Part shown: piece by piece, positions 7,494-63,313 of the stretch
How the letters are laid out: each line of letters opens with the position of its first letter
Numbering within the stretch: position 1 is the stretch's first letter
Assembly: GCA_029004215.1 (NCBI GenBank)
Contig: JAQULH010000001.1
Location: 11,947-75,946, forward strand
DNA from: Patescibacteria group bacterium
GTDB lineage: Bacteria > Patescibacteriota > Patescibacteriia > 2-12-FULL-60-25
DNA: 64,000 nucleotides
Direction of reading: 5' to 3'
Translations under genes and position numbers: made by a program
Notes under the pieces: generated by a model
The model's input: the letters and a program-made list of their open reading frames with translations, nothing else
Databases searched by the model: none
Told to the model about the DNA's origin: nothing

Positions 7494-7510
7494 CTGTTAA
7501 TTTAGCCAAC

Positions 7511-32288: not shown

Positions 32289-34121
32289 ATGCCATCATCC
32301 GAAGCCAAGAAAACAAAGAAAACTATCGTCAAATCAACTCTAGTTTGGTTTGGCATTACCCTGGGAGTCATTGTCCTGTTAGGTGCAGTCTTGGGTGGCG
32401 GGGTTTTTGCTTATACCCGGATGTATAGCAACCGCATTTATCCCGGAGTGCGCGTCTTGGGCGTTAGGCTTGATGGCCTGAGCAAGGAGGAAGCTAGGCG
32501 GCAATTAGACAAAGCAGTTGATGCCTCTTTGGAAAAAGGTTTGGTTTTTGTTTTAGATAGCAAGCAAGAAACTATCCAAGTCTCATCTGACAGCGACTTG
32601 CCTGATTTGATCCGCTTTGATCTGGATAAGGCAATAGACGATGCTTATAATGTCGGTCGCGAGAATGCCATACCTAAAATTGCAGTTGAAATTTTGGCGG
32701 CTCGAATCCGTCCTAAACAAGTGGCCGTAAATATCGACATTGACCAGGATCGCATTAAAGAGGCTCTTAACCTCCAATTTGCAACTAAACTGCCCGAACC
32801 TGTAGATGCGACTTTTTCCATTGATGCTAAATCCGGAACAGAGCCAATGGTTCGTGTTTTGCCTGAAAAAGAAGGCAAGACTTTGGATTTAGCCGGAGTT
32901 TTCGAAAAGCTCCGCCAGCAAGCCGCCATCCTGGCTTTCCAGCCCATAACTTTACATGTCACCAAGCTGGCAGCCCAAAGAAAGTCGGCAGATCTCCAAC
33001 CCTTGGTAGATAAGGCAGAAGAGATGCTGAACAGGCCTTCCTTAAAGTTCACGTATGATGGGAAAAGTTACAAGATCCCCACCTCCACTTTAGCGACTTG
33101 GATTATCGCTGATCCAAGAAGTGATTCTGTAACAATAGACAGCTCAGCTTTTGCTACCAGCATAAGGGACATTGTCAAAGGAGTTGAATCGGAGAGTAAG
33201 AATGGCAACCTCGAAGTCAAAGACGGCAAGATAGTCACCTTTACGGCTTCCACAGTCGGCAAAAAAATCAATATTGATAAGACTTTGGGGCCAGTCCTGA
33301 ATTCTTGGCCGCCTTCTTCCACTTTCCCCTTGATCGTCGAAGAGGAGAGGGGGGCGATTACAGGCAATGATTTAGACCAGTTTGGCGTCAAAGAACTGAT
33401 TGGAGTGGGCGTATCTAATTTTGGCAATTCCCCGCCCAATCGCATTAGAAATATCAAGAAAGCGGTTTATGAAAGGGTTAATGGCACATTGATTGCTCCC
33501 GATGAGGAGTTCTCAATGCTAAAGACTTTGGGGCCGGTGGACGGAGCTCACGGCTGGTTGCCTGAACTTGTCATTAAAGGCGACAAGACAATGCCCGAAT
33601 TCGGCGGCGGCTTGTGCCAGATTGGTACGACCATGTTCAGGGCCGCTTTGGCTACAGGCTTGCCTGTCACGGAAAGACGGAATCATTCTTATCGCGTCAG
33701 TTATTATGAGCCGGCCGGAACAGATGCCACGATTTATGAGCCTTCGCCAGATCTGAAATTCAAAAATGATACGGGCAAGTACATCATCCTCAATGCCTAT
33801 ATCAAGGGCACGCAGGTCTACTTTGAAATGTGGGGGACTAAGGATGGCCGAAAAGTCACCCAGACCAAGCCCAGGATTTACAATATCGTGCCCGCCCCTC
33901 CCACCAAGTTGACGGAAACCGAAGATCTGGCTCCCGGCAAGAAAAAATGTTCCGAATCCGCCCATGCAGGCGCTGATGCCGAGTTCTCCACGACTGTTGA
34001 ATACGCTGATGGCCGCAAACGTGAGGAGACTTTTTCCAGCCATTATCGCCCTTGGCAAGCAGTTTGCCTGATCGGTGTTGCCAAAGGTACTCTCGGAACA
34101 GCTACAAGCACAACGCCATAA
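32289..34121 (+). CDS. VanW/YoaR family protein with N-terminal TM anchor
   Basis: VanW core GGGLCQIGTTMFRAALATGLPVTERRNHSYRVSYY. Confidence 0.85.
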   Translation: MPSSEAKKTKKTIVKSTLVWFGITLGVIVLLGAVLGGGVFAYTRMYSNRIYPGVRVLGVRLDGLSKEEARRQLDKAVDASLEKGLVFVLDSKQETIQVSSDSDLPDLIRFDLDKAIDDAYNVGRENAIPKIAVEILAARIRPKQVAVNIDIDQDRIKEALNLQFATKLPEPVDATFSIDAKSGTEPMVRVLPEKEGKTLDLAGVFEKLRQQAAILAFQPITLHVTKLAAQRKSADLQPLVDKAEEMLNRPSLKFTYDGKSYKIPTSTLATWIIADPRSDSVTIDSSAFATSIRDIVKGVESESKNGNLEVKDGKIVTFTASTVGKKINIDKTLGPVLNSWPPSSTFPLIVEEERGAITGNDLDQFGVKELIGVGVSNFGNSPPNRIRNIKKAVYERVNGTLIAPDEEFSMLKTLGPVDGAHGWLPELVIKGDKTMPEFGGGLCQIGTTMFRAALATGLPVTERRNHSYRVSYYEPAGTDATIYEPSPDLKFKNDTGKYIILNAYIKGTQVYFEMWGTKDGRKVTQTKPRIYNIVPAPPTKLTETEDLAPGKKKCSESAHAGADAEFSTTVEYADGRKREETFSSHYRPWQAVCLIGVAKGTLGTATSTTP

Positions 34122-34146: not shown

Positions 34147-34512
34147 ATGCATCAAGACCTGCAGTCAAATTGGTTGTCTTCCGAAGAAGAAGGCCAACTT
34201 TCGGTAGACGTCTTCCGAGACGGGGATATGCTGGTGATTCGCTCATTGGTAGCCGGGGTAGCGCCGGATGATTTGGATGTTTCCATCAGCAGCGACCTCT
34301 TGACCATCCGGGGTAAGCGCAAAAATGAAAAGAAAGTCGGTTCAGATGATTGGTTTTACCAGGAGTGCTATTGGGGTGCTTTTAGCCGTTCAATAGTCTT
34401 ACCTTGCCATGTGGCAGCCGATCATGCAGAAGCCCAGCTCAAAAACGGCTTGCTTGAAGTCAGGATTCCCATCCGTTCGGATGGCAGGCAGGTAAAAGTC
34501 AAATGGGGGTAG
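34147..34512 (+). CDS. Hsp20/alpha-crystallin family small heat-shock protein
   Basis: Alpha-crystallin domain ...LTIRGKR...FSRSIVLP...AQLKNGLLEVRIP. Extended -10 TGTTATAAT (34130-34138) lies 8 nt before the ATG. Confidence 0.9.
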   Translation: MHQDLQSNWLSSEEEGQLSVDVFRDGDMLVIRSLVAGVAPDDLDVSISSDLLTIRGKRKNEKKVGSDDWFYQECYWGAFSRSIVLPCHVAADHAEAQLKNGLLEVRIPIRSDGRQVKVKWG

Positions 34513-34534: not shown

Positions 34535-34562
34535 AACCGGCTGTTTTGGCCGGTTCTTTTTT
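34535..34562 (+). terminator. intrinsic terminator after hsp20
   Basis: AACCGGC-loop-GCCGGTT followed by CTTTTTT. Confidence 0.65.
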
Positions 34563-34572: not shown

Positions 34573-35382
34573 ATGATATTCTATTATGGCCTTATGCAGG
34601 AGGAATCCAAAGGTTTGAAATTGGCAATAAAGCAACATTGGAACCAACTGAACAAGAAGCAAAAAAGCTTTTTTGTAGTATTTGTTTTGTGCGCGATAGC
34701 GGCCTTGGTTTTTTCATACTCAAGTGTTCGTGAAGGTATCAATGCGCCTTGGCGAGTTTCCATAAAAGATTTGGAAAAGAACAAAAGCATGCTCAAGGAT
34801 TCGGATAAAGATAAGGAGAACTACCAAAAGCGGACTGATACTGACGGTGATGGATTATCGGATTGGGATGAAGAGCATCTTTACCACAGCTCGCCTTACC
34901 TTTGGAGTACGGCTGGCGACGGAATGCCTGACAATGTGAAAATCGCCATGGGCGAGAATCCATTATGCAAGCATGGCGAGCCTTGTACGGTGGAGGCAAT
35001 GAGTTTTAATCTGCCGACCACGACTTATCCTGGTAGCAGTATGCTGGACAATAGTGTCAAAGATGATTTGGGGAATATCATGATGGGCGATAGCCAAGCG
35101 GGGCAAAATTTTAGGCAGGCAGCGAGCGAGGCTGGAGTTGATATGAGTTTGGATAGCGCGATCCCGCGCGATCCGGCACTCTTGCGACAGGCCTTATTGC
35201 AGACCGGCCAGGTTACCCAGGCTGACCTGGATAAGATTTCTGACCAGCAACTTTTACAATATTTTGATGAAGCCAAAGTTGAGCTTTTGAAGAGTAATCC
35301 GAATTTAGCCGCTACCTCGACCACAACAGGAGCCAAGAAAAGTAATACAACCAGCAACCCGGCTGCTGAATTGCCGAATTGA
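34573..35382 (+). CDS. single-TM protein with a thrombospondin-type-3-like Ca-binding repeat
   Basis: TM segment FFVVFVLCAIAALVFSY. DTDGDGLSDWDEE at about 34834-34875. The start is ambiguous (34573 or 34594). Its stop is 2 nt before the giant-gene ATG. Confidence 0.6.
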   Translation: MIFYYGLMQEESKGLKLAIKQHWNQLNKKQKSFFVVFVLCAIAALVFSYSSVREGINAPWRVSIKDLEKNKSMLKDSDKDKENYQKRTDTDGDGLSDWDEEHLYHSSPYLWSTAGDGMPDNVKIAMGENPLCKHGEPCTVEAMSFNLPTTTYPGSSMLDNSVKDDLGNIMMGDSQAGQNFRQAASEAGVDMSLDSAIPRDPALLRQALLQTGQVTQADLDKISDQQLLQYFDEAKVELLKSNPNLAATSTTTGAKKSNTTSNPAAELPN

Positions 35383-35384
35383 TT

Positions 35385-38300
35385 ATGCAAAAGAACGGCT
35401 TTGAAGCAGCAAAGAAAATAATTGTCAGCTTGGTTATCCTGGCAATGTTTGGAGCTTTGGTCGCTCCGTTCAGCCAAGTCTTTGCACAAGCCGGAGCCGT
35501 GCAAGATCCGGGTGAATCGCCACCAGTGGATGCGAATCCTTTAACTTGCAGTGAGCAATATGCCGCGCAGTTAATAGAATATCCAACGCACATGTTGAGC
35601 ATGGGCACCGGGCAATTGGTAATGAGCGACACGTTGGCCACCCTTAAAAAGGACTATATGGAATGCGTGGCCACTAAAACAGCCAAGCAAAAGGATTGGT
35701 GGTACCGTCGGGGTTTATATCTGAAAAATCAATGGGGCACGCGGGTTTTGACGTCCATCTTTGGAGGCTTGGTTGATGCCATGGCCATGATCTCCCAGCG
35801 TATCGCTTATGAAGCGGCCGCTGATTTGCTTTATGGCAACCCTGGCAATGAGCCAAGGTTTTGGAATTCATCTTTTGATACTTGGTTGGAAAATGCCGGC
35901 ATGGATGCCAGCAGCAAGTTTATTGATCGTCTGGATGTTGTCGTGGGTGACTGGACCCAAAGCACAACGGCCACTTATGACCCCAAGACTAACCAGGTCA
36001 TCCCCGGTTTTAGGTTCAGTTTTTGTAAACCGCCCAATCCATATACTTTGCGTTTGTCTTTGGGCCTGGGTGAAGTCGCGAGGCTTGGCCCGGGAGCTTG
36101 TAACTTGAAAAAAGTTGCGGAGAATTTTAAGGCTATTGGCGACTTGGTATCTTCCGGCGACGCCATCCAACTCCATCGTCCCACGGTTCAATATGGCGCC
36201 AGCGACCTGTCAGTAGGCGTGGAAACCAACTCCACATATTTTAACTATTTGATCAATAAGCGGGCCGGGCTATCTTTGAACCGGCAGGAAGACCGTGGCT
36301 TGAGGCCGGTTATGGATGTTGTGAGCGGCAAGATTAAGATTCCTACGTTGATGATGGAGCAGAGCTATAGGGATTTGAGCCCGACTAAGATGGGCTTGAG
36401 CAGTGAAGCGGAACAGCGGGGCGCTATCGTGAGCGCTTATTTCCAAGTCGGATTGGAGAACATTCCCATGCTCGCTCTGACGACATTCACGAATACTTTG
36501 ATTGTCGGTTTGTTGCACAAATGGCTCGATCCAAAGGGTGCCACTGGTCTCGACAATACAGCGACTCCGCAACAAATAACCATTACGGCTGAGAGTTTGA
36601 AGAATGCTGATGCAACCGGAGAAGCGCAAGATTTGTACGAAAGGCAGGCCTTTGCCAAAGCCTTAGGAGATTATTTGATACCGAATTTCGCATCGACTGA
36701 AGATCGAGACATTATATCTGAGTTAACAACTTGTAATACGCCGCGCAAGCGTTTCAATTGCGCCATGGACCAAGCCTTGGGCGTGGCTATCCAAGTCGGT
36801 ACCAGGGAAGGGGCGCTGACAGTCGGTCGGGCATCAGGCATCGGGGGGCAGGGTGCGACTTTTAGCCCGGCTACCCAGGCCTTGCACAGTGACTGGGAGA
36901 TGGTTCCGGAAAGCGATATTAAGAATAACACTGATCCCACCTGTGCCCAACGCGCTTATTGTGCCGGCAACCTTAAGAAAATGCGTTTGGCGCGTATCAT
37001 AACAATTGGTTGGGAAATGGCGGCCAATTCACCTTATAATACAAAGCACAACGGCAAAAATATAACTTTGGGGGAGGTTATCCGCGGTTTTTATGATTGC
37101 AATGATCAAGGCAAGCTGGATAAAGATCATCCCTGGTGCCACCTGATTGATCCCAATTGGATTTTGATGGCGCCGAAGTACCAATGTCGAGCCACTGGTT
37201 TTAGTGATGCCATACTTCCTGGCGTGGGTACGCGCTTGGAAGATTGCGGCGACATGGTAAGTTGCCTTAAGTCAAACCAAAATAATGAGTGCGTGGGCGG
37301 TTACGGATATTGCTTGGCGGAACGCCCCGCGTGGAAGTTTGAAGCCCAAGAATGCGCTGAACAATATGTAAGCTGCCGTACTTATAATTATGTCGGTGGC
37401 CAAGTCTCCTTGCTGCGCAATACGACTGACAAGGGCAATTGTTCGGAAGAAAATATGGGTTGTACCTGGTATGCTACGGAGCGTTACGTGACCAGCACGG
37501 CCTCGCCGGATAACCTTTGGGTAAGTTCAGTCACCAGCGGCCCTCGGGTTTATTTTGATCGTGGAGCGCAACCCTGCTCTTCCGAGGGTTGCACTAAAGT
37601 TTTCAGGGTCACCACTGGCCAAAGTGCTTTGAATTTGGTGCAGAACGGGTCGTTTGAAAATCTAACGACAGCTACAATCAACGATCAAACGGTCATCCAA
37701 AAAGTAAATGGCTGGCGCACCGGATCAAATTGTACATTGGATAAAGCGATATTGAGTGATGCTTATGACGGGACATATTCACTATCTTTGAGTGGACAGA
37801 CCTGTGAACCAACTAGTCAGGACATTGCGATTTACCCCGGCAGGTATTATGTCTTGAGCTATTACCTCAAAACCCAAGCCAAGGTAGGGAAAAATGTGGC
37901 TGACGTTAAGTTTTATAAACGCTTAGCCAATGGCAGTGTCCAGCAGATAAATGACAATATCACTACCTATGGAGATTGCAGTGCCTCGGGCGGTGACCTG
38001 ACTTTTAGCAAGCAGGCGACCGATTCATGGGAAAGGATCAGTTGTGAGTTCGTTTCTCCTAAAGATGTTGCTTATATAACACTGAAACTGGGTGGTACTT
38101 CGGGAGTTCTGTTTTATGATGGAGTACAACTTGAAGAGAGCGAAGTCACGACGCCTTTCATAGATGGTGTTTCTCAGGCTTTGTTGTCTGACAAGCTCAA
38201 GACGGCCTATCTCAAGATCGCACCGGATGAATATAAATGTACGGGTGACGACACGAAAGACCATCCCGGATGCAAGCGTTTTGCGCGTGTATGCCGCCAG

Positions 38301-41300
38301 ACGGATGTAGGTTGCCAAGGCTACAAGGATGTAGAGGATATAACAGCGCCGGAAATCCCTGCCAACTTAACTGCCAAGGACCTTTGTCCGGCTATTTGCG
38401 CCGGTTATGGAGAGTACCGCAAGTTGCCTTCGACTTTTGACCTGGTAAAAGACCCGTCCCACCCGCCTTTTGACGATCCGCAAGACGAGACCACCTCGTA
38501 CTTCATTCCGGGCTCTTTGACTGAGGCCTGCTCGCTTGAGGATGTTGGCTGCGAACCGTTTACCAGCATGGAAGCAGCTACCAGCACCGGCGAAAAAGTC
38601 GCTTATTATAAAGATGTGCGCCTGTGCCAAAAGCCCAATGACCAGGCAGCTACGTATTTTACTTGGGAAGGGTCAGATGTTTCCGGTTATCAGATCAGAA
38701 CTTGGTCGCTGATTGCATCTGATCCGGCCAACGTCACTTCAAGTGCGCCGAAATTAGTCTTGCGGGGAGGCAGCCTCGGGCAGATCAAAGATCCGGCAAC
38801 TTGCAATGATGTAACTTGGAAGCTGGGCAATGACCCGGATTGCCGCCAGTTCTATGATGTGGGCGGTCATGTCTATTATATTTTTTATTCCCAGACAGTA
38901 TCTTCAGACCCGACCTGTACGACTTATCGCAAGGATGACTCGACCGAGGCGGATTGCGTAAAGACCGGAGGAGATTTTGTGATGGCCAGCAAGTCCTGTA
39001 CTTATCAGGCACTGCCTTCAGAAAGTCTGTCTTGTCCGGCCACGGCCGGCGGTTGCCGCGCTTACCTCGGCCCAACCGGTCGCAATGCAATCAATGTTTT
39101 CCGTGATACTTTTGCCACAGGCACCCAAATAGCTTTTGATAAGTCACAAGGCGGCAATACCACACTCCAATATTCCAATGAGTCGGTTTTGGTGGGGGAC
39201 AGGTCGCTCAAACTCGAAGCTCCGCTCGGTTCATCAATTGATGCGACGCTCAAGCTGGCCATCAATTCGACCAGCACGCTCATGCGGGTTTCGTTCTGGG
39301 CCAAGGCCAACCGGCCACGCGGCCAAAACGACCAGCCTTCCAAAGTCATGATTGACGGGGTTGAGGCCGGGACTTTTTATCCGGATGCCGTTTGGTCCCG
39401 TTTTGAGGTCGGTCCTTTCACTGCCAAACAAAATCCGACACTCGTCGAGATTGTGGCCCCGTCCCAGTCCCAGACACAGAACAACATAATTTATGTTGAT
39501 ACGTTCAGCGTAGACCAGTTGAATGACGTGCAGTTTGTGCGCAAGAACCATTGGGCAATACCTTTGGCTTGCGACTCAACGCCCGAGGGCACGCCCGAAC
39601 CGCGCTATATGGTAGGTTGCCGCGAATATAGCAGCCGAAACGGCGATACGGTTTTTGTCCGCAATTTCAGCCGCTTGTGCCGTGATACAGCCATAGGTTG
39701 CAGCGCCTTCATCGATACCAACGACAAGCCTCAGCCTTATTCCGAAACCAAGACAATCAAAGGCACGAATTTTCCTGCGGATTTTAACTTGAACAGCTAT
39801 GCCAAGCACGGTGCGGCTAAGGCTTACGAAGAACAGTTCTTTGGCGATTGGTCGGTAACCAGCCAACCTTACCGTTATTATTACGCCATTGATGACGCCC
39901 GGGGGCGGTGCGATTCTTCGCAAGCTTCTTGCCGAGGTTATGGCAAACCGATTTTCCGCCAGGACAGGATTGCTTTGGCAACCACCACCTATCAAGTTGA
40001 TCCGGCTAATGCGGACATATACTACAATCAAAAAGACTTGTTCGGTTTTGATACGGTCCTCTTTAAGGATGATTGGAGCAAGTATCTTAAGGACAATGGC
40101 GATCCGAACATGGCTTGCCGCAAAGACGAGCTGTTCTGTGACCAGTTCAAGAGCGGCAACGTGACAGAATATTTCCGAGATCCGGGTAAGCAGGCCTGCG
40201 TCTGGCGCGCTTCTAAGAAGCTGACCAAAAATGCAGCTTATAACATCCCGTCGGACGGAGATTATTCCGGTTGGTTCCGCGAGGGCACGGACATACCGTG
40301 TTATCCTCCCTACCTTTCGTCCGGCAATAATTATTTGATTCAGTACACCGGCGAAAGCGATTATGCGGGTTGGGGCGGCAAGTGCCCGGTTGACCAAAGC
40401 GAGTGTACCGAATTGGTCGATCCCAATGACACTTCTGATCAGTCGCATCCAAACGGAAGGTCTTATTATGTCATTAACGGTCCTAAGCTTGATAAATCTT
40501 CATGCGGCGGCACAGCTGATCCGCTTTCGGGCTGTATCCTCTTCCAAGATAAGGGGGTCGGCACGTTGCAGGCCAGCAGCCAAGCCACTTATTCCAAGGT
40601 CATGGCCGAAAGAGGGGCAGCCCAACCGCCTATTGATTGCAAAGGCAACCCGGGTGACCAATATTGCGTAGCGACCAGGAAATGTAAGAATTTCAAGTCC
40701 ACCTACAATACTAATATCGTTGTCCCGCCGGGAGACAGCATCGGCGCCGCCGGGGACGAAAATGAGTTTAATAAAAATTGGACCAAATATCTAAAAGACA
40801 GCAATCTTGAAAATAAAGTTTGCACCCAACCGTCCCAATGCAATTCGGATGTCAAAGTCAGTTCTAGGGGCGGGGCCATGGTTACCATTGGTTTTGTTAC
40901 AGGTGATTGTCCGGAAAGCAGCAACGATGCCAACGTGGTCATAAAAGTCAAAATGGACCGCGAATGCGCGCGTTGGATGGGTTGCCGCACGGGTGAGACT
41001 GTTTACGATGCCGGGCAGAATAAATACGTCACCCAATGTACGGACATGAATATCTGCGAACGCAATGGTTCGCGGAATGATGATATTTATTGTTCCAAAT
41101 TTACGGAACGTGACAGTGAAAATTTCTTGTCGCCCGGCCAGTATGTCGATACTGACAGTTATAGCGGCCGCGAGGTCGGTTTCGGCAAGATGGATTATTC
41201 CGGCTTGATTTCACCCGACCATTATTTGGTGGCTGACATCCAGACCAGGGCGGTAGGTTATGACCTTTTGAGTGGCAGCAAGCTGGCCGACCGTTATCGC

Positions 41301-44300
41301 TATGATTTGCGAGCCGTAGCTGAAGTCCCAAGCGACGCTAAGGAAATTAAAGGCGTGGAAGACCCGCTCTTCAAAGTACCCGGCATAAGTTTATGTAAAG
41401 ATGTGCGGACTGACCGCGTAGGTTATTCAGAAGACGGAAAGTGTATTTTGCCGATCAGCGAAGCTTCATCTTTGATGCTTGTCGCCGGACAACTGACAAC
41501 GGATCTGACACGTGATATCAGGCAACTTTATAATTCCTTTGAATCAGGCTACGCAGATACAGGCAATAATGTGTTGCAAAGTGCCATGCCATTGCCTGAG
41601 TGCCAGATTTATCCGGAAGAAGCCTCTCCTTTGCCAAACCAGTACGTGGCAGAATGGAACAGCTCGGTCAACCCTCCAACGCCCAAGAAGATGGTGGAAG
41701 GTTATGAGCATGCCAACGCTTGCGTATATAAGGAAGATTGTTCCTGTTCTTACCGTAAAGTCAGGTATTCGGGCGGGGAGAGATATTATGCCCTGGATGG
41801 CGCTGCGCCGTCGGTGGGTATTTGTATGGGCGGCGATTTGGACGGACAACCCTGCGTACCCGGAGGCTATGTGGCAGTCGGCGCGCAGAACAGAGTTCTG
41901 TCAAAATCAACAGTCACGGATTCCTGCAAAGGGGGAACTTGCTTGCCTATCCAGGATGTTGTTTCCGTGTTTGGGAAATATGGTTATTGTCTGGAAAGGG
42001 ATCTTACCAGGATTAGCTCAGCCTCCCAAACCATAGCTCCCTGCCTTACGTGGAGCCCCATGGCTGTTTTGGGCGGCAAGTACGACGTATCGCACCGTTC
42101 TCCAACCGCCAGCTACACTCCTCCGCAAGGCATGGGTGAGTATTACTGCTCAAGCGGGGCCAACGTGCAAAAGTTAATTACTCCAAACGTCACTACGGCT
42201 TATGAAGCCGGGTATATAAAACACTGGGCCAGTACGGATTTCATAATGCCGGGCAACCAGCAGCAGTTTGCCTATTCGCGGCCCGATGTCTGGTGGAATA
42301 CCAAAACAAAGAATAATTACCAAAATATTTACCTTGATGGTTCGTCCAACCTTTACCAAGACAGTACTTATTCCGCTTGTCCCACTTGTTCAATTAAATT
42401 GGATGAAACTGCGGCGCACGTGTGCACAGTGGGTGTCGGCAAGGTTGGAAAAGGTTGTACCAACGACGTTGATTGCGGCAGTGGCGGTAAGTGCGGTGAT
42501 AGTTCCACGCTGCGCGTAACCGGCAATGAAACCAAGAACATGCAATATGCCTGTCGCCGCGCATCCCTTTGCGAGGGCTTAAGGCCGGAAGACAAGGATG
42601 TGAGCACTTCTTGTGATACGGCTGAGAACCGTTTGGCAAAGAACAGCAAATGTCAAGATGCCAATAACCAAGATGGCCTTTGGATTCAGACAGGTGGGGG
42701 CTTCAGCCGTTCTTATTTGGAATACTTCATACCTTATCGTCCAAGCTTTGAGGGTTTGCAACAGGATGCTTCGAGGCCTAACCCCAATTACTTTGACTAT
42801 CGGTTTGGGCTTTTCAGGTTCGGCATACAGCCTGATGCTGTCGGTTCTGCTTGTAAGTGGAATCCCAAGTGGTTTGGGATGGATTATCCGACTGTTAACC
42901 AGGACAAACAGACGGCTTTCTCTTGTACTAACTTTTTGCAGCAGGTCCAAAGCGCTTCCAACCAAATAACCCAGCTGGCGCAACAATCCATGCCCTTGAT
43001 TTTGGACAGGGGTTCTGAGGAATTGTTAAGTGATCCGCAGGGCGTGCCGTATAAGCTGGGTTGTTTAGGCAACCAGTCAGGCTCGTGTTACTTTAAATTT
43101 TGGCAGTCCGGTTTCAATGACCAGGACCAGGGAGAATTCAATTGGATTGATGGAGGAGGTTATAAGACTACCCCCGAGACTTTTAGGTGGGAAAAGGTCT
43201 ACAGCATCTGGTACGGCCAACAGTGCAGGTCCGGCAGACCCTATTTTGCCATCAGGGCCATGTTCCAAAATGTAAATTCCGCAGAAAATGCGCTGGAGCC
43301 GGACGAGGCCAGGTTTGATAAACTTTCAGGGCCTTGGCAGTTCATAGGGTTTTGGGTCACGACTTGTATGCCCAACCAGGTCTTGAATGATCCTGGTTTG
43401 ATGTATTTGCGTTTGGATATAGTTAAGGCAGATGTCTGCAAGGAGGTGTCGCAGGTTATTGCGCCATATACCAGGGAAAGCGCGGCTTTCGCTGACAGGG
43501 TCTGGGCCCAAGGGAGGTTTATCTTGCCGGTTTTGGGTTTGCAATATAATTCGCCCAATGAACCTTTTGGGTCAGCCTTGGCTACCAAGCAGATTGGCAA
43601 TGATCCAATGCTCATGGGCGCTTCGGTCCCGCTTTCAGGCGATTACCTGAAATCACCGACTTTCGTTGATTCTGGTTTGAGCATGCAGAGCATATTTAAT
43701 GATCAGCAAAATTCCTGGATGCCTTTGTCAAATTTGTTTGCCAGGATTTATAAGGTTTACCGTTGGTCGCCTTACACGGTCAATGTAGGGGACTGGGCCT
43801 GCGTCAAGGGAGATAAGATGGCCAATAAATGCAGTGTGAATGCCAACACTTACCAGGGTCTGATAGATTGCGGAGATTACGCCACTTGCTCCGATGAACT
43901 TGATACAAGCTTGGTCAACCTGGATTGGCGTTGCAATGCCTTGTCCGGCGTTAACCGCGGGTTAAGTTGCGGTACGTCGAATAATTGGACCTCGCCGACC
44001 AGAAACTCTGATCCGATTTGCCATAATGCGGCTGTTTACGCCCACAGGGATTCTGTAACTAATAATATATCCACTAGCCATTGCAGCGAACAGGATACGA
44101 GTGATTGCGTATTGTCCAAACCCGGTTGCGAACCGGCCAACCAAGCCCACCCTGACTTTTTGGCCTACACGGTTAACAGCAAGGATTATGACCCCGCCAA
44201 GAAAGACTTTACTATCAACTTTAAGCCGTTTATATGCACGGACCAGAATTTTTATGCTTTTCCGACTTTGGAAACGGTCAGTGCCAATACCATCCAGGCG

Positions 44301-47300
44301 TCCAAATGGTCTGATGCCTCCATGCTGCTTTATGCTGCTTTGAAGGTTTCCTTGAAATGGAGATGTGATTACAATTTAGACGGTTCGCCGCCGACCTGTG
44401 ATCCTATAAGCGACTTCTGTGGGCAAGGCCAGGGCAACGCCAGTGTTCTTGGTATTTTAGCCGCCCTCAATGCTCAATTGATAGGCGCCAACGACTCATA
44501 CGACATGAGGAGCGCTTTTAAGGCAGCTTTTGACAACGAAAAATCCCATCCCAACTTTAACGGCATTGATTCGAGTTACAATGCCTTCACCTCGCCGCTT
44601 AACGGAGTCATGAACCTATGGAAGACAAAAGGTATAACTGAAAAAACACTGCCTATCAGAATTGCCCTGGGCAAATGGAATATAGATAGGCTTAGTCAGC
44701 TGATTAATTATAAATGCAGCGCCGATTCGGTTAACGCAGACCACCGTTGCCTGGCCATCGGTTCACTGCCAACAGATTTGAATACGTTCATACAAACGCA
44801 TAACGGAAACCAGCCAATCGCCAATGACTTCCCGAATTTGTATAAGTCCTATCAGACTTTATATTGTCCCAAGCGCATAGACCCCTGCGGTACGCCCGGC
44901 GTGCCCCAGTACCCGTATTACAATCCTCCTCCCGGCAAGTCGGTTATGGATATGGAAGGCTTGTCGCCGCCAGCTTGCGGTTACTGTTCTCTGAACGATC
45001 CCACCGGATGGGGCGCTTCCCAGAATGACCAGTATTACGGAAAGATGCCCAAAGACGCCCAAGGCAAGGATACCGGTTATTGCGTAGGATTTAGCAAATA
45101 TTCACGTTGCAGTACGAATGCCGATTGTACGTTCAATAATTTTGAATACTGGGGCGCCCATCAGGAAGAGACCAGGACAGACGGCATACTTGGTTATGAT
45201 TATGACAACCTGACAGTTGATTTCCCGTTGTTATACCTGCAAGATGACAAGTCTCCGATAAGCAAGGATCCGCAACCCACTGCCGTGAACCTGCCTACGC
45301 CTTTGTTCGAAAAAACAGACTTGGTACCGGGCGATCTGATTAAGGATGAATACCGTGTGCCGGATAAATATTCCGAACCGGCCGTTTTGACCGTCTTGAA
45401 CAGCGGCGACAGTGTATGCCTATTAAGACCCGTCGGCAAAATTTGTATGGCCATCGCCCAAGAATTGTTTGATAGGTATGGCGAGACCAACAAGACGGAC
45501 GGCGTAGCCTTGGGCTATAAGGATATGCATAGTGGCCAGTCAACTCTGAACAAAGTCGGGGATGTGATGGCTAAGCTGGCCCAAGATTCTTATTGGGCCC
45601 TAGTGCCAGGCTATAACGGGATCAAGCTAATAGAAGATATTTGCGGTGATAAGTGCGATCCGTCTGCCGGGCACAGGAAGGACTATGGTGATACCTTGAT
45701 AAAGGAGCTGATGCAAGAATTCGATAAATGCGAAACCATTTGCGATAACGGCGCCGTTTTGGCACCCAACGGCTATGCAGCCCATTTTGAGGATATTGTT
45801 AATAAGAGCGTGGCCACACCGACCTCAAAACCTGTCAGAACAGTCAGCCTGGCTCCGTTTGTTGTTAATCCATTATGGGAGACGATTCGTTCAATCGGTT
45901 ACTCCACAAATAAGACAATAAGTTATTGCGAAGAGGACGGGGATAATTTTGCGAAAGACAATAATTCTTGTTGCCAGGGTAGCAGCTTCCAATCTTCTTA
46001 TGTTACGGCCTACTTCTTGAAGGGATTGTATTACCAATATAGCTGGCGCTTTCAGATCCGCAATATATATGATGAAGACAAGTGCGGGGATGTACCGCGT
46101 ACCTGGGAATCGTATATGCCGTACGCAGTCGACGGCGTCCCTCTGGCCGGCATATTTAATATAACTTCTCAGTTGACTGGGACTTTCTTGGACAATTACC
46201 CCCGTTTTGAGCTCCTCTGGCCTAATGGTTTTGACCATAGGCTCCAGGACCTGGGCAAAGATACTTTGGTAAATGACATGTTCCCCTGGTCTGTAAGTGA
46301 GGTTTATTTTACCAGCCTGTTCCCTCTACTGGATAAAGGTTACAGCTTGTTTGACACGAACCCAGCGAAAATCCTTTACAACGGTGCAATCAGCTGGTTC
46401 CAGTATATGAGGATTTGGAGTGGTTTTGGCTATTCCGAAGATCTTAAAAATGCTTTTGACAATTATTTGGTGGCTTTACAGGACAAAACCAACAAGCAAG
46501 CGGCCTTTGATAATGCCAAGGCCAGTGATGACAAGGCCTGTTCCAATCAGCCAGACCCTTTGTTTTGTGATTATTCCGCAACCACTAAAGCTCAAGCGGA
46601 GTTGGATAAGATAAAAGATGATTTTACCAAGGCAGAAGCGGCTTATCAGAAGCAATATAAAATTGACATGCAGGACCATTATTTCAGCCAGACGGGCTGG
46701 GGGACTTTAATAGACGAAAATGATCCCAGGCTGCAGCTTTATCCGGGGGCTTTGCCGGCGGCTAAGCCTTTGGCAGACAAGGCTGCTTCTGCAGCAGCTC
46801 CCCTTAAGCCAATATTTGTTCCTGGCCATTGCGAGCCGCCTAAAAACGGTACGGATTTTGACTCTAAACAACTGGCCGCCCGCGGCGTTGACCTGGGGCT
46901 GCAAGATAAAGATGCGGGTAAATATAATATTGCCGGCAAACCGGCATTTACCTGGCCAGCGGGCGGGGCTAACGATTCTGGCTATAAGACATGGTATACC
47001 GATACAGTTTATGGAGGCGCAGGTTTTAGCAGCGGTTGGCATGGTGCGACAGATTATTACAATCCGCCGAATCAGGTTCAGTCGGACAAGCTTGAGGGCG
47101 ATGGCACCGGCGCGAGCAATGGGTATACAGCTGCGACTTATGACAGTTTGGTGAATATCACCAATCCTCCCGAGGCGTATATTCCGGCAGAAATTGTTCC
47201 TGATCCGTTGGGACGATTCGGTGAAGACATCCTTATGCCGGCTCCGGTAGGCAGCGTCGGGAAAATAAGCAGAACCACTTGTCGTTGCGATGGAGGCGTA

Positions 47301-48977
47301 TTTGACGGCCAAGCCATGTCCAGTATTTTGGATTGTAATTCAAAATTGCAAGCTTCAGAAAACCCTTTTGCTCAGGATGGCTTAGGCAATTTAATACATG
47401 ACCCGAATGTTTCTTATCAACAAGATCCATCTGCTTATTGCAAGCCGGTCAGTAAAGAAGACGGCAAGCCTACTGATGAGTGCCAGGCCAAAACCGGTGA
47501 AGCCGGTAACCCGGACCCGGACCTGGATGATAACCTCTGTACCCACCGTCCGGGTTATGTGCCACGCGGCGATGTTTGTGCCGACGGACGTGATCAGTGC
47601 TTGGTGACATATAACTTGCACGATAATGTTTCAGTGGATTCCTATCTTAAATCCAAGGACGTTAAGGCCGCGCCATCGGCCACAGACGTTACTCCTGGTT
47701 TGGACACTTATCATTTCTTGAGCGGCTGTGGTGCCAACGGTTGCGATCTGAGTCAAGGATTCAGGCTTAAGGATGATAAGCAGCTGACAGCTCCTTATAA
47801 ACCGCAACCGCCTATGGTAGCGGCTCCGGATATGACTAAGAGTTCAGCTTCCGCCAATGCCGTACCGATTGCCGCGCTGGATGCGTTCACGATTAACAAT
47901 CTGCCCCAAGGCTTATTATTTGCGGGCGGCGGGCAAAGCTTGGTAACCATGAGGTTCTATGCTTGGACAGCCCATGATCAGGGTCCGATTAAGAAGATTG
48001 TGATCGACTGGGGCGATGGCACTGTCAATCGGATCGATTATGCGCAAATGAAGAACCAAAAGCCGATATGCAATACGGATCGTGAATGTGCGACTGTTCC
48101 GGGATTGGCTTGCTCAGGTGATGCTGATTGTCCGCCGGGTACTGGCGGTTGCGTCCCGACCGGTTACTGCAAGAAGCAGTCTTACACGCCATGCCACCGG
48201 GACAGTGACTGCGACCAAAAATCCAAAGGTGACACTTGTGAATATAGGATTTTGTTTGGCAACAGTCCGGATGCTTGCCGACAAGGCTATATGGAATTTG
48301 GCCACGTTTATAAATGCGAGACCTTGAAAGATATTCCAGATTTCAGTTGTTATGACAATACCGGTTCTGATTTGAAGTGCTCCAAAGAACCAAACCTGAC
48401 ATGTGATTATTGCAAGGAAGGTGAGTCGTGCGTTAAGGGGCTTGCTCCCCAGAAGGGCTGTTTCAACGAGCAACTTAATCATTGTCGCTTTACGCCGCGA
48501 GTCATGGTGTTTGATAACTGGGGTTGGTGCACCGGGGATTGTTCAAACGTCAATGACGGCAAGGCTGATGACAGGATAGTCCGCCATCCGAACCTGGGCT
48601 GTTATGACGGCTCCCAAACTAAGATTAACTCAGAAGTCATGTCCAAGCCGGCAACCAGCCAAGTGATTTCTTCGAGGCCTTCAAAGACGGGATATAATGC
48701 CCAAGAATGTGCTGATCAAGATTCCTTGGTAATTAACAGCTTTATTCCCAAGGACAGTATCTATTATCAGCGACGTCCATGGATTGTGTACCAGGGAGCG
48801 ATTGAGCTGCAGGCTGGCGAACAGGCTCTGCAAGGTCTCAATCTGCAAAGCGGCAGCCAGAATACATGCGAGCAAAATTGCCAACTCGCTTACAATGTTT
48901 GTCAGGCCCAAAATAAGCCTAATTGCGCAGTAGGTTTATCCTTGTGTACCCAAATGTGTGGCAGCAAGATCCAATAA
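35385..48977 (+). CDS. giant secreted Cys-rich protein (~4,530 aa), function unknown
   Basis: Uninterrupted 13.6-kb ORF. Signal peptide or anchor at 35385-35492. CBM4_9/jelly-roll-like segments at about 37620-38140 and 39090-39520. PKD-like IDWGDGT at 48003-48023. Confidence 0.85.
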   Translation: MQKNGFEAAKKIIVSLVILAMFGALVAPFSQVFAQAGAVQDPGESPPVDANPLTCSEQYAAQLIEYPTHMLSMGTGQLVMSDTLATLKKDYMECVATKTAKQKDWWYRRGLYLKNQWGTRVLTSIFGGLVDAMAMISQRIAYEAAADLLYGNPGNEPRFWNSSFDTWLENAGMDASSKFIDRLDVVVGDWTQSTTATYDPKTNQVIPGFRFSFCKPPNPYTLRLSLGLGEVARLGPGACNLKKVAENFKAIGDLVSSGDAIQLHRPTVQYGASDLSVGVETNSTYFNYLINKRAGLSLNRQEDRGLRPVMDVVSGKIKIPTLMMEQSYRDLSPTKMGLSSEAEQRGAIVSAYFQVGLENIPMLALTTFTNTLIVGLLHKWLDPKGATGLDNTATPQQITITAESLKNADATGEAQDLYERQAFAKALGDYLIPNFASTEDRDIISELTTCNTPRKRFNCAMDQALGVAIQVGTREGALTVGRASGIGGQGATFSPATQALHSDWEMVPESDIKNNTDPTCAQRAYCAGNLKKMRLARIITIGWEMAANSPYNTKHNGKNITLGEVIRGFYDCNDQGKLDKDHPWCHLIDPNWILMAPKYQCRATGFSDAILPGVGTRLEDCGDMVSCLKSNQNNECVGGYGYCLAERPAWKFEAQECAEQYVSCRTYNYVGGQVSLLRNTTDKGNCSEENMGCTWYATERYVTSTASPDNLWVSSVTSGPRVYFDRGAQPCSSEGCTKVFRVTTGQSALNLVQNGSFENLTTATINDQTVIQKVNGWRTGSNCTLDKAILSDAYDGTYSLSLSGQTCEPTSQDIAIYPGRYYVLSYYLKTQAKVGKNVADVKFYKRLANGSVQQINDNITTYGDCSASGGDLTFSKQATDSWERISCEFVSPKDVAYITLKLGGTSGVLFYDGVQLEESEVTTPFIDGVSQALLSDKLKTAYLKIAPDEYKCTGDDTKDHPGCKRFARVCRQTDVGCQGYKDVEDITAPEIPANLTAKDLCPAICAGYGEYRKLPSTFDLVKDPSHPPFDDPQDETTSYFIPGSLTEACSLEDVGCEPFTSMEAATSTGEKVAYYKDVRLCQKPNDQAATYFTWEGSDVSGYQIRTWSLIASDPANVTSSAPKLVLRGGSLGQIKDPATCNDVTWKLGNDPDCRQFYDVGGHVYYIFYSQTVSSDPTCTTYRKDDSTEADCVKTGGDFVMASKSCTYQALPSESLSCPATAGGCRAYLGPTGRNAINVFRDTFATGTQIAFDKSQGGNTTLQYSNESVLVGDRSLKLEAPLGSSIDATLKLAINSTSTLMRVSFWAKANRPRGQNDQPSKVMIDGVEAGTFYPDAVWSRFEVGPFTAKQNPTLVEIVAPSQSQTQNNIIYVDTFSVDQLNDVQFVRKNHWAIPLACDSTPEGTPEPRYMVGCREYSSRNGDTVFVRNFSRLCRDTAIGCSAFIDTNDKPQPYSETKTIKGTNFPADFNLNSYAKHGAAKAYEEQFFGDWSVTSQPYRYYYAIDDARGRCDSSQASCRGYGKPIFRQDRIALATTTYQVDPANADIYYNQKDLFGFDTVLFKDDWSKYLKDNGDPNMACRKDELFCDQFKSGNVTEYFRDPGKQACVWRASKKLTKNAAYNIPSDGDYSGWFREGTDIPCYPPYLSSGNNYLIQYTGESDYAGWGGKCPVDQSECTELVDPNDTSDQSHPNGRSYYVINGPKLDKSSCGGTADPLSGCILFQDKGVGTLQASSQATYSKVMAERGAAQPPIDCKGNPGDQYCVATRKCKNFKSTYNTNIVVPPGDSIGAAGDENEFNKNWTKYLKDSNLENKVCTQPSQCNSDVKVSSRGGAMVTIGFVTGDCPESSNDANVVIKVKMDRECARWMGCRTGETVYDAGQNKYVTQCTDMNICERNGSRNDDIYCSKFTERDSENFLSPGQYVDTDSYSGREVGFGKMDYSGLISPDHYLVADIQTRAVGYDLLSGSKLADRYRYDLRAVAEVPSDAKEIKGVEDPLFKVPGISLCKDVRTDRVGYSEDGKCILPISEASSLMLVAGQLTTDLTRDIRQLYNSFESGYADTGNNVLQSAMPLPECQIYPEEASPLPNQYVAEWNSSVNPPTPKKMVEGYEHANACVYKEDCSCSYRKVRYSGGERYYALDGAAPSVGICMGGDLDGQPCVPGGYVAVGAQNRVLSKSTVTDSCKGGTCLPIQDVVSVFGKYGYCLERDLTRISSASQTIAPCLTWSPMAVLGGKYDVSHRSPTASYTPPQGMGEYYCSSGANVQKLITPNVTTAYEAGYIKHWASTDFIMPGNQQQFAYSRPDVWWNTKTKNNYQNIYLDGSSNLYQDSTYSACPTCSIKLDETAAHVCTVGVGKVGKGCTNDVDCGSGGKCGDSSTLRVTGNETKNMQYACRRASLCEGLRPEDKDVSTSCDTAENRLAKNSKCQDANNQDGLWIQTGGGFSRSYLEYFIPYRPSFEGLQQDASRPNPNYFDYRFGLFRFGIQPDAVGSACKWNPKWFGMDYPTVNQDKQTAFSCTNFLQQVQSASNQITQLAQQSMPLILDRGSEELLSDPQGVPYKLGCLGNQSGSCYFKFWQSGFNDQDQGEFNWIDGGGYKTTPETFRWEKVYSIWYGQQCRSGRPYFAIRAMFQNVNSAENALEPDEARFDKLSGPWQFIGFWVTTCMPNQVLNDPGLMYLRLDIVKADVCKEVSQVIAPYTRESAAFADRVWAQGRFILPVLGLQYNSPNEPFGSALATKQIGNDPMLMGASVPLSGDYLKSPTFVDSGLSMQSIFNDQQNSWMPLSNLFARIYKVYRWSPYTVNVGDWACVKGDKMANKCSVNANTYQGLIDCGDYATCSDELDTSLVNLDWRCNALSGVNRGLSCGTSNNWTSPTRNSDPICHNAAVYAHRDSVTNNISTSHCSEQDTSDCVLSKPGCEPANQAHPDFLAYTVNSKDYDPAKKDFTINFKPFICTDQNFYAFPTLETVSANTIQASKWSDASMLLYAALKVSLKWRCDYNLDGSPPTCDPISDFCGQGQGNASVLGILAALNAQLIGANDSYDMRSAFKAAFDNEKSHPNFNGIDSSYNAFTSPLNGVMNLWKTKGITEKTLPIRIALGKWNIDRLSQLINYKCSADSVNADHRCLAIGSLPTDLNTFIQTHNGNQPIANDFPNLYKSYQTLYCPKRIDPCGTPGVPQYPYYNPPPGKSVMDMEGLSPPACGYCSLNDPTGWGASQNDQYYGKMPKDAQGKDTGYCVGFSKYSRCSTNADCTFNNFEYWGAHQEETRTDGILGYDYDNLTVDFPLLYLQDDKSPISKDPQPTAVNLPTPLFEKTDLVPGDLIKDEYRVPDKYSEPAVLTVLNSGDSVCLLRPVGKICMAIAQELFDRYGETNKTDGVALGYKDMHSGQSTLNKVGDVMAKLAQDSYWALVPGYNGIKLIEDICGDKCDPSAGHRKDYGDTLIKELMQEFDKCETICDNGAVLAPNGYAAHFEDIVNKSVATPTSKPVRTVSLAPFVVNPLWETIRSIGYSTNKTISYCEEDGDNFAKDNNSCCQGSSFQSSYVTAYFLKGLYYQYSWRFQIRNIYDEDKCGDVPRTWESYMPYAVDGVPLAGIFNITSQLTGTFLDNYPRFELLWPNGFDHRLQDLGKDTLVNDMFPWSVSEVYFTSLFPLLDKGYSLFDTNPAKILYNGAISWFQYMRIWSGFGYSEDLKNAFDNYLVALQDKTNKQAAFDNAKASDDKACSNQPDPLFCDYSATTKAQAELDKIKDDFTKAEAAYQKQYKIDMQDHYFSQTGWGTLIDENDPRLQLYPGALPAAKPLADKAASAAAPLKPIFVPGHCEPPKNGTDFDSKQLAARGVDLGLQDKDAGKYNIAGKPAFTWPAGGANDSGYKTWYTDTVYGGAGFSSGWHGATDYYNPPNQVQSDKLEGDGTGASNGYTAATYDSLVNITNPPEAYIPAEIVPDPLGRFGEDILMPAPVGSVGKISRTTCRCDGGVFDGQAMSSILDCNSKLQASENPFAQDGLGNLIHDPNVSYQQDPSAYCKPVSKEDGKPTDECQAKTGEAGNPDPDLDDNLCTHRPGYVPRGDVCADGRDQCLVTYNLHDNVSVDSYLKSKDVKAAPSATDVTPGLDTYHFLSGCGANGCDLSQGFRLKDDKQLTAPYKPQPPMVAAPDMTKSSASANAVPIAALDAFTINNLPQGLLFAGGGQSLVTMRFYAWTAHDQGPIKKIVIDWGDGTVNRIDYAQMKNQKPICNTDRECATVPGLACSGDADCPPGTGGCVPTGYCKKQSYTPCHRDSDCDQKSKGDTCEYRILFGNSPDACRQGYMEFGHVYKCETLKDIPDFSCYDNTGSDLKCSKEPNLTCDYCKEGESCVKGLAPQKGCFNEQLNHCRFTPRVMVFDNWGWCTGDCSNVNDGKADDRIVRHPNLGCYDGSQTKINSEVMSKPATSQVISSRPSKTGYNAQECADQDSLVINSFIPKDSIYYQRRPWIVYQGAIELQAGEQALQGLNLQSGSQNTCEQNCQLAYNVCQAQNKPNCAVGLSLCTQMCGSKIQ

Positions 48978-48991: not shown

Positions 48992-49020
48992 TTGACATGA
49001 AGCGAAATGGAGTATATAGT
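48992..49020 (+). promoter_or_regulatory. sigma70 promoter upstream of nusA
   Basis: TTGACA (48992-48997), 17 nt, TATAGT (49015-49020). Confidence 0.5.
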
Positions 49021-49089
49021 TAGCAAGTTGACTCGTTCTGGATGAACGGGTCTTCTTTTACCCCAAATTGATAAAACATCATTAACCCT

Positions 49090-61077: not shown

Positions 61078-61692
61078 ATGCAAATAATCAGTCTCGAAGA
61101 CCAAAAAGCGGCCGTGGAACAAGCGGTCCAGGTTTTGCGTCAAGGTGGAGTTATTGTCTTTCCAACCGAAACCTCATATGGTTTGGGTTGTGATCCGCGT
61201 AACTTAGCCGCATTAGGAAAAATCTATCGCATCAAGGAGAGGTCGACCTCAAAAGCCCTGCCTTTAGTTTCGTGTTCGATTGAACAAGTGAGGAGCATAT
61301 TTGATGTTCCTAAAGCCGTCGAAGAATTAGTTGCCAAGTATTGGCCTGGTCCGTTGACCATCCTGCTTGAACCAAAGGATATGAGCCTGCGCCATCAGAT
61401 GCCTGTCTTTAAAGACGGTTTATCAGCCATCCGTGTCTCGTCACATCCTTTTGTCCAGGCCTTGGCTTGCTCCTATAATTTCCCGATAACTGCCACCTCG
61501 GCCAACATGACTGGCATGGCAGATCCTTATTCCATGAACGACCTGCTTAAGGTGTATAAGCCTGTAGACGCCAGCAAACAGCCGGATTTGATTATCGATG
61601 GCGGTGATTTGCCATACAATCCACCTTCAACCATTGTTAAAGTTGAGTCTGGAAAGATTGAAGTCCTTAGGCAGGGGGCAATTGAGTTATGA
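61078..61692 (+). CDS. tsaC: L-threonylcarbamoyladenylate synthase (TsaC/YwlC/Sua5 family)
   Basis: VFPTETSYGLGCD and SANMTG motifs. TATACT (61066-61071) lies 6 nt before the ATG. Confidence 0.85.
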   Translation: MQIISLEDQKAAVEQAVQVLRQGGVIVFPTETSYGLGCDPRNLAALGKIYRIKERSTSKALPLVSCSIEQVRSIFDVPKAVEELVAKYWPGPLTILLEPKDMSLRHQMPVFKDGLSAIRVSSHPFVQALACSYNFPITATSANMTGMADPYSMNDLLKVYKPVDASKQPDLIIDGGDLPYNPPSTIVKVESGKIEVLRQGAIEL

Positions 61693-63052: not shown

Positions 63053-63064
63053 CTCATCTCCTCC

Positions 63065-63313
63065 TTACGCGGCGCGTTCCATGGCGCGGCGGGACAGGTG
63101 TCTCTCGATCTCGGGCAAGGTCTCGCGTTCGAGCTTGTCGAGTTCGACGAAGATCCTCATGATCTCCTCGTCGTGTTGCGGGTCGGCCAGAGCACTCAGG
63201 CTAGACCACTCCTCGCGCAGGTTTTGAATCTCATCCATGATCGAGTCGCGACGTTCTCGCACCTGGTCTGTGCTAAGCACGTGCAACGGGGCAATTGCGG
63301 GGACTTTGTCCAT
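63065..63313 (-). CDS. small helical hypothetical protein (82 aa)
   Basis: AAGGAG (63325-63320) lies 6 nt before ATG 63313. Charged, coiled-coil-like sequence. The 139-aa version of the ORF track would include the promoter. Confidence 0.55.
   Translation of the reverse strand: MDKVPAIAPLHVLSTDQVRERRDSIMDEIQNLREEWSSLSALADPQHDEEIMRIFVELDKLERETLPEIERHLSRRAMERAA

Follow-up and report, generated by a model that had tools for sequence, protein, structure and literature searches.

A giant cysteine-rich secreted protein and its single-pass membrane partner in Patescibacteria: a conserved two-gene unit with a possible role in cell-cell contact

A large share of bacterial diversity belongs to the Patescibacteria, which are mostly attached to other cells; to our knowledge, their contact molecules are largely unknown outside the cultured Saccharibacteria. 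The 64,000-nucleotide (nt) stretch of Patescibacteria DNA that has been analysed here (contig JAQULH010000001.1 of assembly GCA_029004215.1), which we refer to as “the window”, contains a single gene for a giant protein, a gene that occupies up to 13.6 kb in genomes of ~1 Mb, and the question that the locus raises is what such a protein does for its cell. An earlier interpretation, made from the letters of the window alone and referred to here as “the sequence-only reading”, had proposed a host-attachment or surface apparatus. The answer that we tentatively favour, at somewhat less than an even chance, is that the giant gene and the small gene directly upstream of it form a two-gene unit: a surface scaffold, exported via Sec and locked by disulfides, would be held by a membrane partner and would present variable glycan-binding modules for contact between cells. 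Coordinates are positions in the window, unless a related locus is named, and the features of the two-gene unit and of its borders all lie on the forward strand (+).

The giant open reading frame (ORF) is real. It runs from the ATG at 35385 to the TAA at 48977, i.e. 4,530 amino acids (aa) plus the stop codon, without interruption, as the sequence-only reading had stated, and the probability that 4,531 codons stay open by chance in DNA of ~49% GC is, by our own arithmetic, ~(61/64)^4531 or ~e^-217. A scan of species-representative genomes has returned 14 related loci, all from metagenome-assembled genomes (MAGs) of the Patescibacteria type, several of which are mislabelled “Gammaproteobacteria” Third Party Annotation (TPA) bins, while one is labelled Uhrbacteria; the gene is complete and uninterrupted in five related loci (4,159-4,307 aa), and in three further loci it is open past >4,300 aa, to the end of the fetched DNA. 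The nearest relative is an NCBI “hypothetical protein” of 4,480 aa, and at least eight orthologues (4,160-4,480 aa), which come from independent assemblies of different studies, are colinear with the window protein along its full length at 45-72% identity; as these orthologues are both colinear and uninterrupted, an assembly chimera, a frameshift or a collapse is argued against.

It is therefore only with a vanishingly small probability that we would consider the ORF to be an assembly artefact, a chimera or a decaying pseudogene. Two relatives do carry a divided gene, i.e. L017, where a single in-frame TAA (11882-11884) splits it into 627 and 2,752 aa, and L018, where it appears as five consecutive gene calls (1-11827 of a 1.32-Mb contig); but the window ORF is open over 13.6 kb, it is colinear over its full length with more than eight independent assemblies, and its Cys positions are kept throughout. 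The splits in L017 and L018 could be long-read indel errors or genuine decay; an alternative genetic code behind the L017 split has been ruled out, as the interrupting stop is a TAA.

The way in which the protein leaves the cell is indicated by its N-terminus, where a signal peptide can be read at aa 1-36 (35385..35492): a basic n-region precedes an h-region of 18 aa, and a site of the signal peptidase I type, AQA|G, closes it. The sole hydrophobic stretch of the giant protein is located at aa ~8-35, with no transmembrane (TM)-like segment after aa 36, and distant family members have the same layout of basic n-region, h-region and A-x-A-type site. While a signal peptide or a signal anchor had been proposed earlier, and the hydrophobic segment itself is confirmed, a Sec signal peptide that is cleaved off is the most likely reading of the N-terminus, ahead of an anchor, because of the sequence at its end and the A-x-A-type ends that recur across the family. 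Neither an LPXTG motif nor a C-terminal TM segment or type I secretion signal is present in the giant protein, in agreement with the earlier claim that it has no such segment or sorting tag; its C-terminus consists of a conserved β-domain and of a tail that only the window protein has.

The exported protein contains 170 Cys residues (3.75%), distributed along its whole length, which agrees with the earlier description of a disulfide-rich extracellular protein: 102 of the 170 are invariant in all eight orthologues of the full-length alignment, 136 are kept in at least six, and ~70, all of which lie either at positions below aa 2256 or within the C-terminal domain, stay unchanged even among relatives with 27-39% identity. 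The tabulation of the Cys spacings, which had been suggested as a check, has revealed an excess of C-x5-C (n=17) and C-x6-C (n=18) over the ~5 expected for each, and a short recurrent mini-motif, C-x6-C-x2-[YF], that had previously been missed and occurs in ~11 copies from aa 636 to 1680. On the other hand, the Cys-rich tail (aa ~4476-4530; 48810..48974) that had served as the example of Cys clustering turns out to be unique to the window; the orthologues stop ~10 aa past the RPWIVYxG strand and lack it. No internal repeats have been found in the giant protein by self-BLASTP (nothing at E<=10), and an all-versus-all hhalign comparison of its 200-aa blocks (946 pairs) has given a single match of 26 columns at 41-45% probability, so that the earlier statement that tandem repeats are absent stands; since there are no internal repeats beyond the Cys mini-motif, the protein is set apart from the giant adhesins that are built from repeats. 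A polymorphic toxin was also considered and has been ruled out, as the C-terminus of the giant protein is its conserved part and not its variable part. In one distant relative, L017, genes for thioredoxin and thioredoxin reductase (5273-6518) are located ~4 kb upstream of the pair.

In the full-length orthologue alignment, the conservation along the giant protein is blocky: conserved segments (aa 100-745, with ~80% identity at aa 500-600; aa 950-1750; aa 1850-2300; aa 2450-2900; aa 3750-4400) alternate with variable ones (aa 750-940, where the carbohydrate-binding module (CBM) is located; aa 1750-1850; aa 2300-2450; aa 2900-3750; and the tail after aa ~4475). The N-terminal conserved module (aa ~100-745; 35682..37619), which includes DKDHPWCHLIDPNW and GYGYCLAE, is family-defining; the second conserved core (aa 950-1750; 38235..40634) contains many of the hairpin-like C-x6-C-x2-[YF] motifs and a possible second CBM-like segment; the third and fourth cores (aa 1850-2300 and 2450-2900; 40932..44084) flank the variable insert at aa 2300-2450; and the longest variable region (aa 2900-3750; 44082..46634) is rich in indels.

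The first jelly-roll of the protein (aa ~750-920; 37632..38144) is a true CBM_4_9 module and behaves as a hypervariable cassette. The segment alone (aa 745-922) scores 31.4 bits against CBM_4_9 (Pfam PF02018; gathering score 25.9), a 513-aa tile scores 27.2 bits, and the match is lost in the whole-protein scan; CBM_4_9 matches occur in 8 of 13 diverse family members (best E 1.6e-12). In a Foldseek search, the jelly-roll taken from an AlphaFold model of the tile aa 36-1235 (six-sequence alignment; predicted local distance difference test (pLDDT) of 37 for the tile and 52-70 for the jelly-roll) matches the CBM16 structure 2zex (E 3.1e-8, TM-score 0.70), as well as CBM4-2, CBM22 and CBM70. The module thus passes the Pfam threshold and superposes on CBM16 and CBM4-2 (TM-score ~0.7) as the known CBM4/9/16/22 modules do, but it makes up ~4% of the giant protein and has no recognisable glycoside hydrolase attached. 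The sequence-only reading had named two such segments; for the second (aa 1235-1382; 39087-39530), the window sequence gives no CBM_4_9 match, either alone or in tiles, sub-threshold matches are seen in 5 of 11 orthologues (best E 0.0034), and hhalign relates it to the first at 7% probability over 39 columns, so that it is retained here as a weak, possible CBM-like segment.

Between relatives with flanks and cores that are 74-76% identical, the CBM is 32-39% identical, and in some pairs with equally similar cores (~75%) the variable region at aa 2900-3750 falls to 24-26%; the divergence of both is about at the level of the deepest comparisons. As the two diverge far beyond the cores, cassette replacement or diversifying selection is suggested; their pattern is as expected for a ligand-specificity module.

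CBM_4_9 modules are usually carried by glycoside hydrolases, and one rival explanation is that the giant protein is an extracellular enzyme, or an enzyme complex, that acts on polysaccharide or cell wall, with the CBM targeting an unrecognised catalytic core to its substrate, e.g. the D-x-D-H-P-W-C...D-P-N-W block. This explanation, which we consider improbable, draws on the origin of the structural matches of the CBM (xylanases and glucanases), on invariant acidic and His residues at aa 500-650, present even in distant members, and on the giant genes of other ultra-small predatory bacteria, for which a link with cell-wall degradation has been drawn (bioRxiv 10.1101/2023.11.21.568195); however, no catalytic family has been recognised with the Pfam, NCBIfam and PDB profiles in any tile, which also agrees with the earlier remark that no catalytic motif is visible, structural roles are indicated by the predominance of Cys, Gly, Trp and Pro among the invariant residues, and CBM-type jelly-rolls are also found in phage fibres and toxins.

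Outside the CBM, the protein is as unnameable as had been claimed. The scan of the whole giant protein against Pfam, NCBIfam and PHROGs has given nothing above threshold, but only sub-threshold CBM-like NCBIfam matches, and the PDB sequence and profile searches with six tiles or alignments have given nothing significant; the best PDB matches, a nitrophorin (E 0.0085) and a transglutaminase elicitor (E 0.1), have been dismissed as noise. The structure and hidden Markov model (HMM) searches that had been proposed as a check place the protein in no known adhesin or S-layer family.

The best-modelled part is the C-terminal Cys-knotted domain (aa 4139-4387; 47799..48545), which is rich in β-strands, carries the motifs RFYAW..IDWGDG..KNxKP.C..CRFTPRV.V.DNWGWC and is well conserved, with 20 database fragments and 79 metagenome loci. 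Its model (21-sequence alignment; predicted TM-score (pTM) 0.71, pLDDT 85-95 at aa 4139-4387) is mostly β, and the fold search against PDB and BFVD has returned no match at E<=0.001 (best in PDB: E 0.065, TM-score 0.15), with Ig-like and PKD-named structures appearing only at E>0.5. The PKD module that had been seen at IDWGDGT (aa ~4207) is consequently not upheld: there is no PKD HMM match at E<=10 for the segment alone or at E<=1 for the tiles, and no significant fold neighbour.

The only constant neighbour of the giant gene is the gene of its small partner (34594..35382), which encodes 262 aa from a conserved ATG (MQEE...) and ends at the TGA 35380-35382, leaving a gap of 2 nt before the giant ATG, as had been noted; this spacing makes the co-translation of the two genes plausible. 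The search of related MAGs for the syntenic pair, another check that had been proposed, has found that a homologue of the partner directly precedes the giant gene in all 16 close loci (gap -4 to +6 nt) and in most of the distant loci with usable upstream sequence; for most of the related loci, the gap lies between -4 and +21 nt. The partner has a short cytoplasmic N-tail, one TM segment, an extracellular DTDGDGLSDWDE followed by a degenerate second loop of the thrombospondin type 3 (TSP3)-like kind, a C-x5-C motif and a conserved C-terminal domain. The DxDxDGxxDxxE loop is kept in the family, with residues D82, D84, D86, G87, D90 and E93 and two Cys being invariant in 12 homologues, and distant members have two canonical loops. 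Against the Bacterial TSP3 repeat (PF18884) the window partner scores 14.6 bits (E 0.031), below the gathering score of 25, its homologues have precomputed “weak” or “faint” TSP3_bac matches, and its family profile weakly matches EF-hand-type calcium-binding loops. The partner is, then, a single-TM protein with a predicted TSP3-type loop and putative calcium binding; from the earlier description of a 269-aa single-TM TSP3 protein, the TM segment and the DxDxDG loop stand, while the start at 34573 gives way to the conserved ATG and the TSP3 match stays under the threshold. The ORF at 62759-63457 was considered as a second partner gene and rejected, as it is unrelated.

The mechanism that we propose joins these elements as follows. 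The giant protein would leave the cell via Sec, its signal peptide being cut after AQA, and would fold extracellularly into a non-repetitive multi-domain scaffold with up to ~85 disulfides; since it has no anchor of its own, it would be held at the membrane or the wall by the co-expressed single-pass partner with its calcium-binding TSP3-type loops. The conserved scaffold (aa 100-2300, aa 2450-2900 and the C-terminal domain) would display the exchangeable CBM_4_9 module and the region at aa 2900-3750, and these modules would bind the surface glycans of another (host) cell, providing contact and specificity. The gene structure with its conservation, the export signal and the lack of an anchor, the invariant Cys, the CBM with its hypervariability, the constant partner and the T4SS genes beside the pair in some relatives are direct observations. 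We infer the cleavage of the signal peptide, the disulfides, the anchoring by the partner, the binding of glycans and host and any link with a type IV secretion system (T4SS) in this genome from the features described here. The attachment role put forward by the sequence-only reading is thereby somewhat better grounded, through the hypervariable CBM, the constant partner and the proximity of T4SS genes in the sister clade, with attachment itself kept as a supposition.

Several points weigh against this proposal. The functional model as a whole is built from sequence and gene context, and its functional side leans on the context because ~96% of the giant protein is without a match in Pfam, NCBIfam, PHROGs or PDB; the interaction of the two proteins is presumed from the order of their genes; no disulfide-forming enzyme has been seen within the window; and the conservation of the cores is unusually high for a host-binding adhesin, so that a structural or machine part fits at least as well. 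There are also no T4SS genes near the pair within the 64-kb window, or within 10 kb of it in its clade, where the neighbours are housekeeping genes, and none in six other flanked sister-clade loci; T4SS genes are seen in only about half of the adequately flanked loci of the sister clade.

The strong conservation leads to a second rival explanation, namely that the giant protein is a general envelope block, an S-layer-like or wall scaffold that serves the integrity of its own cell, with the partner as its tether or assembly factor. We rate this explanation as somewhat unlikely, although much agrees with it: the cores and the Cys pattern are very strongly conserved; at every locus examined, by our own reading of the locus tables, the gene is single and lies in a syntenic core-genome context; housekeeping and envelope genes (SMC, VanW, YidC, Wzy_C-like, GroEL) surround it; the family is broad and apparently inherited vertically; and the tandem repeats that are typical of fibrous adhesins are absent. 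However, no SLH, S-layer or wall-binding Pfam domain has been found in the window protein and 12 other members, S-layer proteins are usually much smaller and fast-diverging, a hypervariable CBM and variable region are not expected of a self-directed structural protein, and the explanation does not account for the T4SS genes beside the pair in the sister clade. Even if the giant proved to be no more than a structural wall protein, the distinctive envelope of these cells would thereby have its first candidate.

The T4SS is essential for epibiotic growth in Saccharibacteria, and its genes follow the pair in some loci of the sister clade. In loci L021, L022 and L087, the order is small gene, giant gene, a ~9-TM protein, one or two unknown proteins, PrgI (VirB3-like), TraC-like and the VirB4-like ATPase. 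As the pair heads a monoderm-type T4SS cluster there, the proposed structure may be the extracellular contact part that the T4SS otherwise lacks; the T4SS of Patescibacteria is chromosomal, of the monoderm type and relaxase-less, and no PrgB-like adhesins have been detected for it (PMC12102498). That the pair is a T4SS-linked contact structure, which may be a part of the T4SS or work with it, is in our judgement an unlikely extension of the contact-scaffold reading; its fuller version, which we hold to be equally doubtful, is a disulfide-locked contact organelle, where the swappable CBM and the variable region set the host range and the pair has moved from the KsgA slot to a place between Hsp20 and NusA.

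The proteins between the giant gene and PrgI/VirB4 (L021, 15386-20787; L022, 17060-21291; L087, 10237-14631) are conserved and unknown: the first (~810-930 aa) has ~9 N-terminal TM segments, a VirB6-like topology without a Pfam match, and the second is soluble (~450-600 aa); both are candidates for unrecognised parts of the Patescibacteria T4SS. Homologues of the 9-TM protein also occur nearby in L091, L096 and L101, without the rest of the cluster. In L091, a 1,629-aa ORF with the 9-TM module (12983-17869) follows the giant gene, and in L094, a 1,965-aa ORF of unknown nature is located downstream of it.

The comparison with the adhesins PrgA/PrgB/PrgC of pCF10 bears on the same point, given that monoderm T4SS use adhesins rather than pili (PMC12102498). 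Like these, the giants are predicted to be secreted surface proteins, and in L021, L022 and L087 the giant gene is located directly upstream of VirB6-like, PrgI (VirB3) and VirB4 genes. Unlike them, the giant has no Pfam or NCBIfam similarity to T4SS adhesin domains and no LPXTG motif, is ~3-4 times larger and, in the window, is not located beside a T4SS, while the T4SS of Patescibacteria, being relaxase-less, is probably not conjugative (PMC12102498).

Giant secreted surface proteins of host-dependent ultra-small bacteria are already known, and the closest statement in the literature concerns the large Cys-rich extracellular proteins of Peribacteria in the Candidate Phyla Radiation (CPR) (Anantharaman et al. 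2016, PMC4736985). These share with the window protein the CPR/Patescibacteria origin, the signal peptide, the predicted extracellular location, the richness in Cys, a function that could not be predicted and a proposed role in attachment; compared by description only, they have a mean of ~1,655 aa and 7.2% Cys, form a 14-gene cluster and show weak similarity to a Myxococcus Cys-rich repeat, whereas the window giant is a single gene for 4,530 aa with 3.75% Cys and no such repeat match. The RTX, Bap and Ig-like adhesins and Giant1-5 of Apilactobacillus (PMC12863079) are likewise extracellular surface proteins of 3,000-8,000 aa, but they are built from tandem domain repeats; the window giant has neither these repeats nor such Pfam domains, and has an invariant Cys framework instead. 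The giants of predatory Omnitrophota (West-Roberts et al., bioRxiv 10.1101/2023.11.21.568195) likewise come from host-dependent bacteria of ultra-small size and are supposed to act on other cells; in the passage of the Lipocone-superfamily preprint that summarises them (bioRxiv 10.1101/2025.01.14.632903), they combine many enzymatic and signalling domains with TM segments, in contrast to the window protein, in which a single domain can be recognised and TM segments are absent past the signal peptide.

The extent of the family has been explored with an exhaustive hmmsearch, in which a 928-position profile of the N-terminal part was compared with 1.84 billion representatives of 50%-identity clusters. 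With E<=1e-3 as the limit, it has returned 1,465 representative clusters, of which 1,047 have E<=1e-30; among the best 150 clusters, nearly all proteins have 2,700-4,460 aa and the match begins at residue ~50-100. The named members are “hypothetical protein” entries from Candidatus Uhrbacteria, “Patescibacteria group” or uncultured bacterium. The full set of family features is present in the window protein, i.e. the N-terminal module of ~900 aa, the Cys framework to aa ~2255, the FYAW..WGDG..DNWGWC domain, the signal peptide and the partner. One member of ~3,000 aa (P0101; L022, 8001-17063) ends in a hydrophobic, Gly-rich tail, PPWLIGGFFTGGGLFLSL, which the others lack and which may be a lineage-specific anchor or sorting signal. 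No description of the giant family has been found in the literature, including the Peribacteria note, the Omnitrophota preprint and the T4SS survey, where it is not mentioned; neither the family itself nor its non-repetitive Cys framework, obligate partner or C-terminal fold appears to have been described. The family is a candidate new entry for Pfam or NCBIfam and, as the combination of a conserved scaffold with a hypervariable, putatively glycan-binding cassette is the pattern expected of a specificity device, a target for structure prediction, metaproteomics, cryo-electron tomography and host-range work.

Lastly, we turn to the boundaries of the unit and to its surroundings. Upstream of the pair are located VanW (32289-34121) and Hsp20 (34147-34512), and the giant gene is followed by NusA, YidC, a PRC-barrel protein, a Wzy_C-like protein and GroEL. 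Right after Hsp20, a hairpin that resembles a terminator and carries a T-run (34535..34555) overlaps the start of the longest form of the partner ORF (TTG 34546) and probably separates Hsp20 from the small and giant genes. The ATG at 34594 is only ~7 nt past a TATTAT box, because of which the partner may be translated from an mRNA with a very short leader or none. At the other end, a promoter-like site (TTGACA-17-TATAGT, 11/12, sigma-70-like) with a terminator-like hairpin (48992..49052), in the 112 nt that separate the giant gene from nusA, is the downstream limit of the unit; the order of promoter and then hairpin is odd, and the element could be a leader or attenuator for nusA.

The block SMC-VanW-Hsp20-small-giant-NusA-YidC-...-Wzy_C-GroES/EL is kept within the clade of the window, while in the clade of ~3,000-aa giants the order is Sua5-KsgA-small-giant, with VanW and Hsp20 being absent in distant members. 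The position of VanW and Hsp20 directly upstream is as the sequence-only reading had given it; as a functional clue, it has been rejected, since the two are absent outside the clade and the hairpin after Hsp20 intervenes, and the linkage is best seen as inherited, lineage-wide gene order. In the window, Sua5-KsgA (61078-62510) is not followed by the pair, but by the ribosomal RNA (rRNA) operon; as the KsgA slot is empty in comparison with the sister clade, a relocation of the pair in the lineage of the window is suggested. A bacterial 16S rRNA gene, of which the 5' part lies at 63863-64000 (91.6 bits, model positions 1-131), runs off the end of the window.

Elsewhere in the window, in the region of 3764-6286 and 1923-3374, an 840-aa protein with a sub-threshold Peptidase_M23 match (27.6 versus 28.7 bits) is located next to ComEC, RecA and FtsK; M23-containing proteins of Patescibacteria have been discussed as VirB1-like wall hydrolases (PMC12102498).

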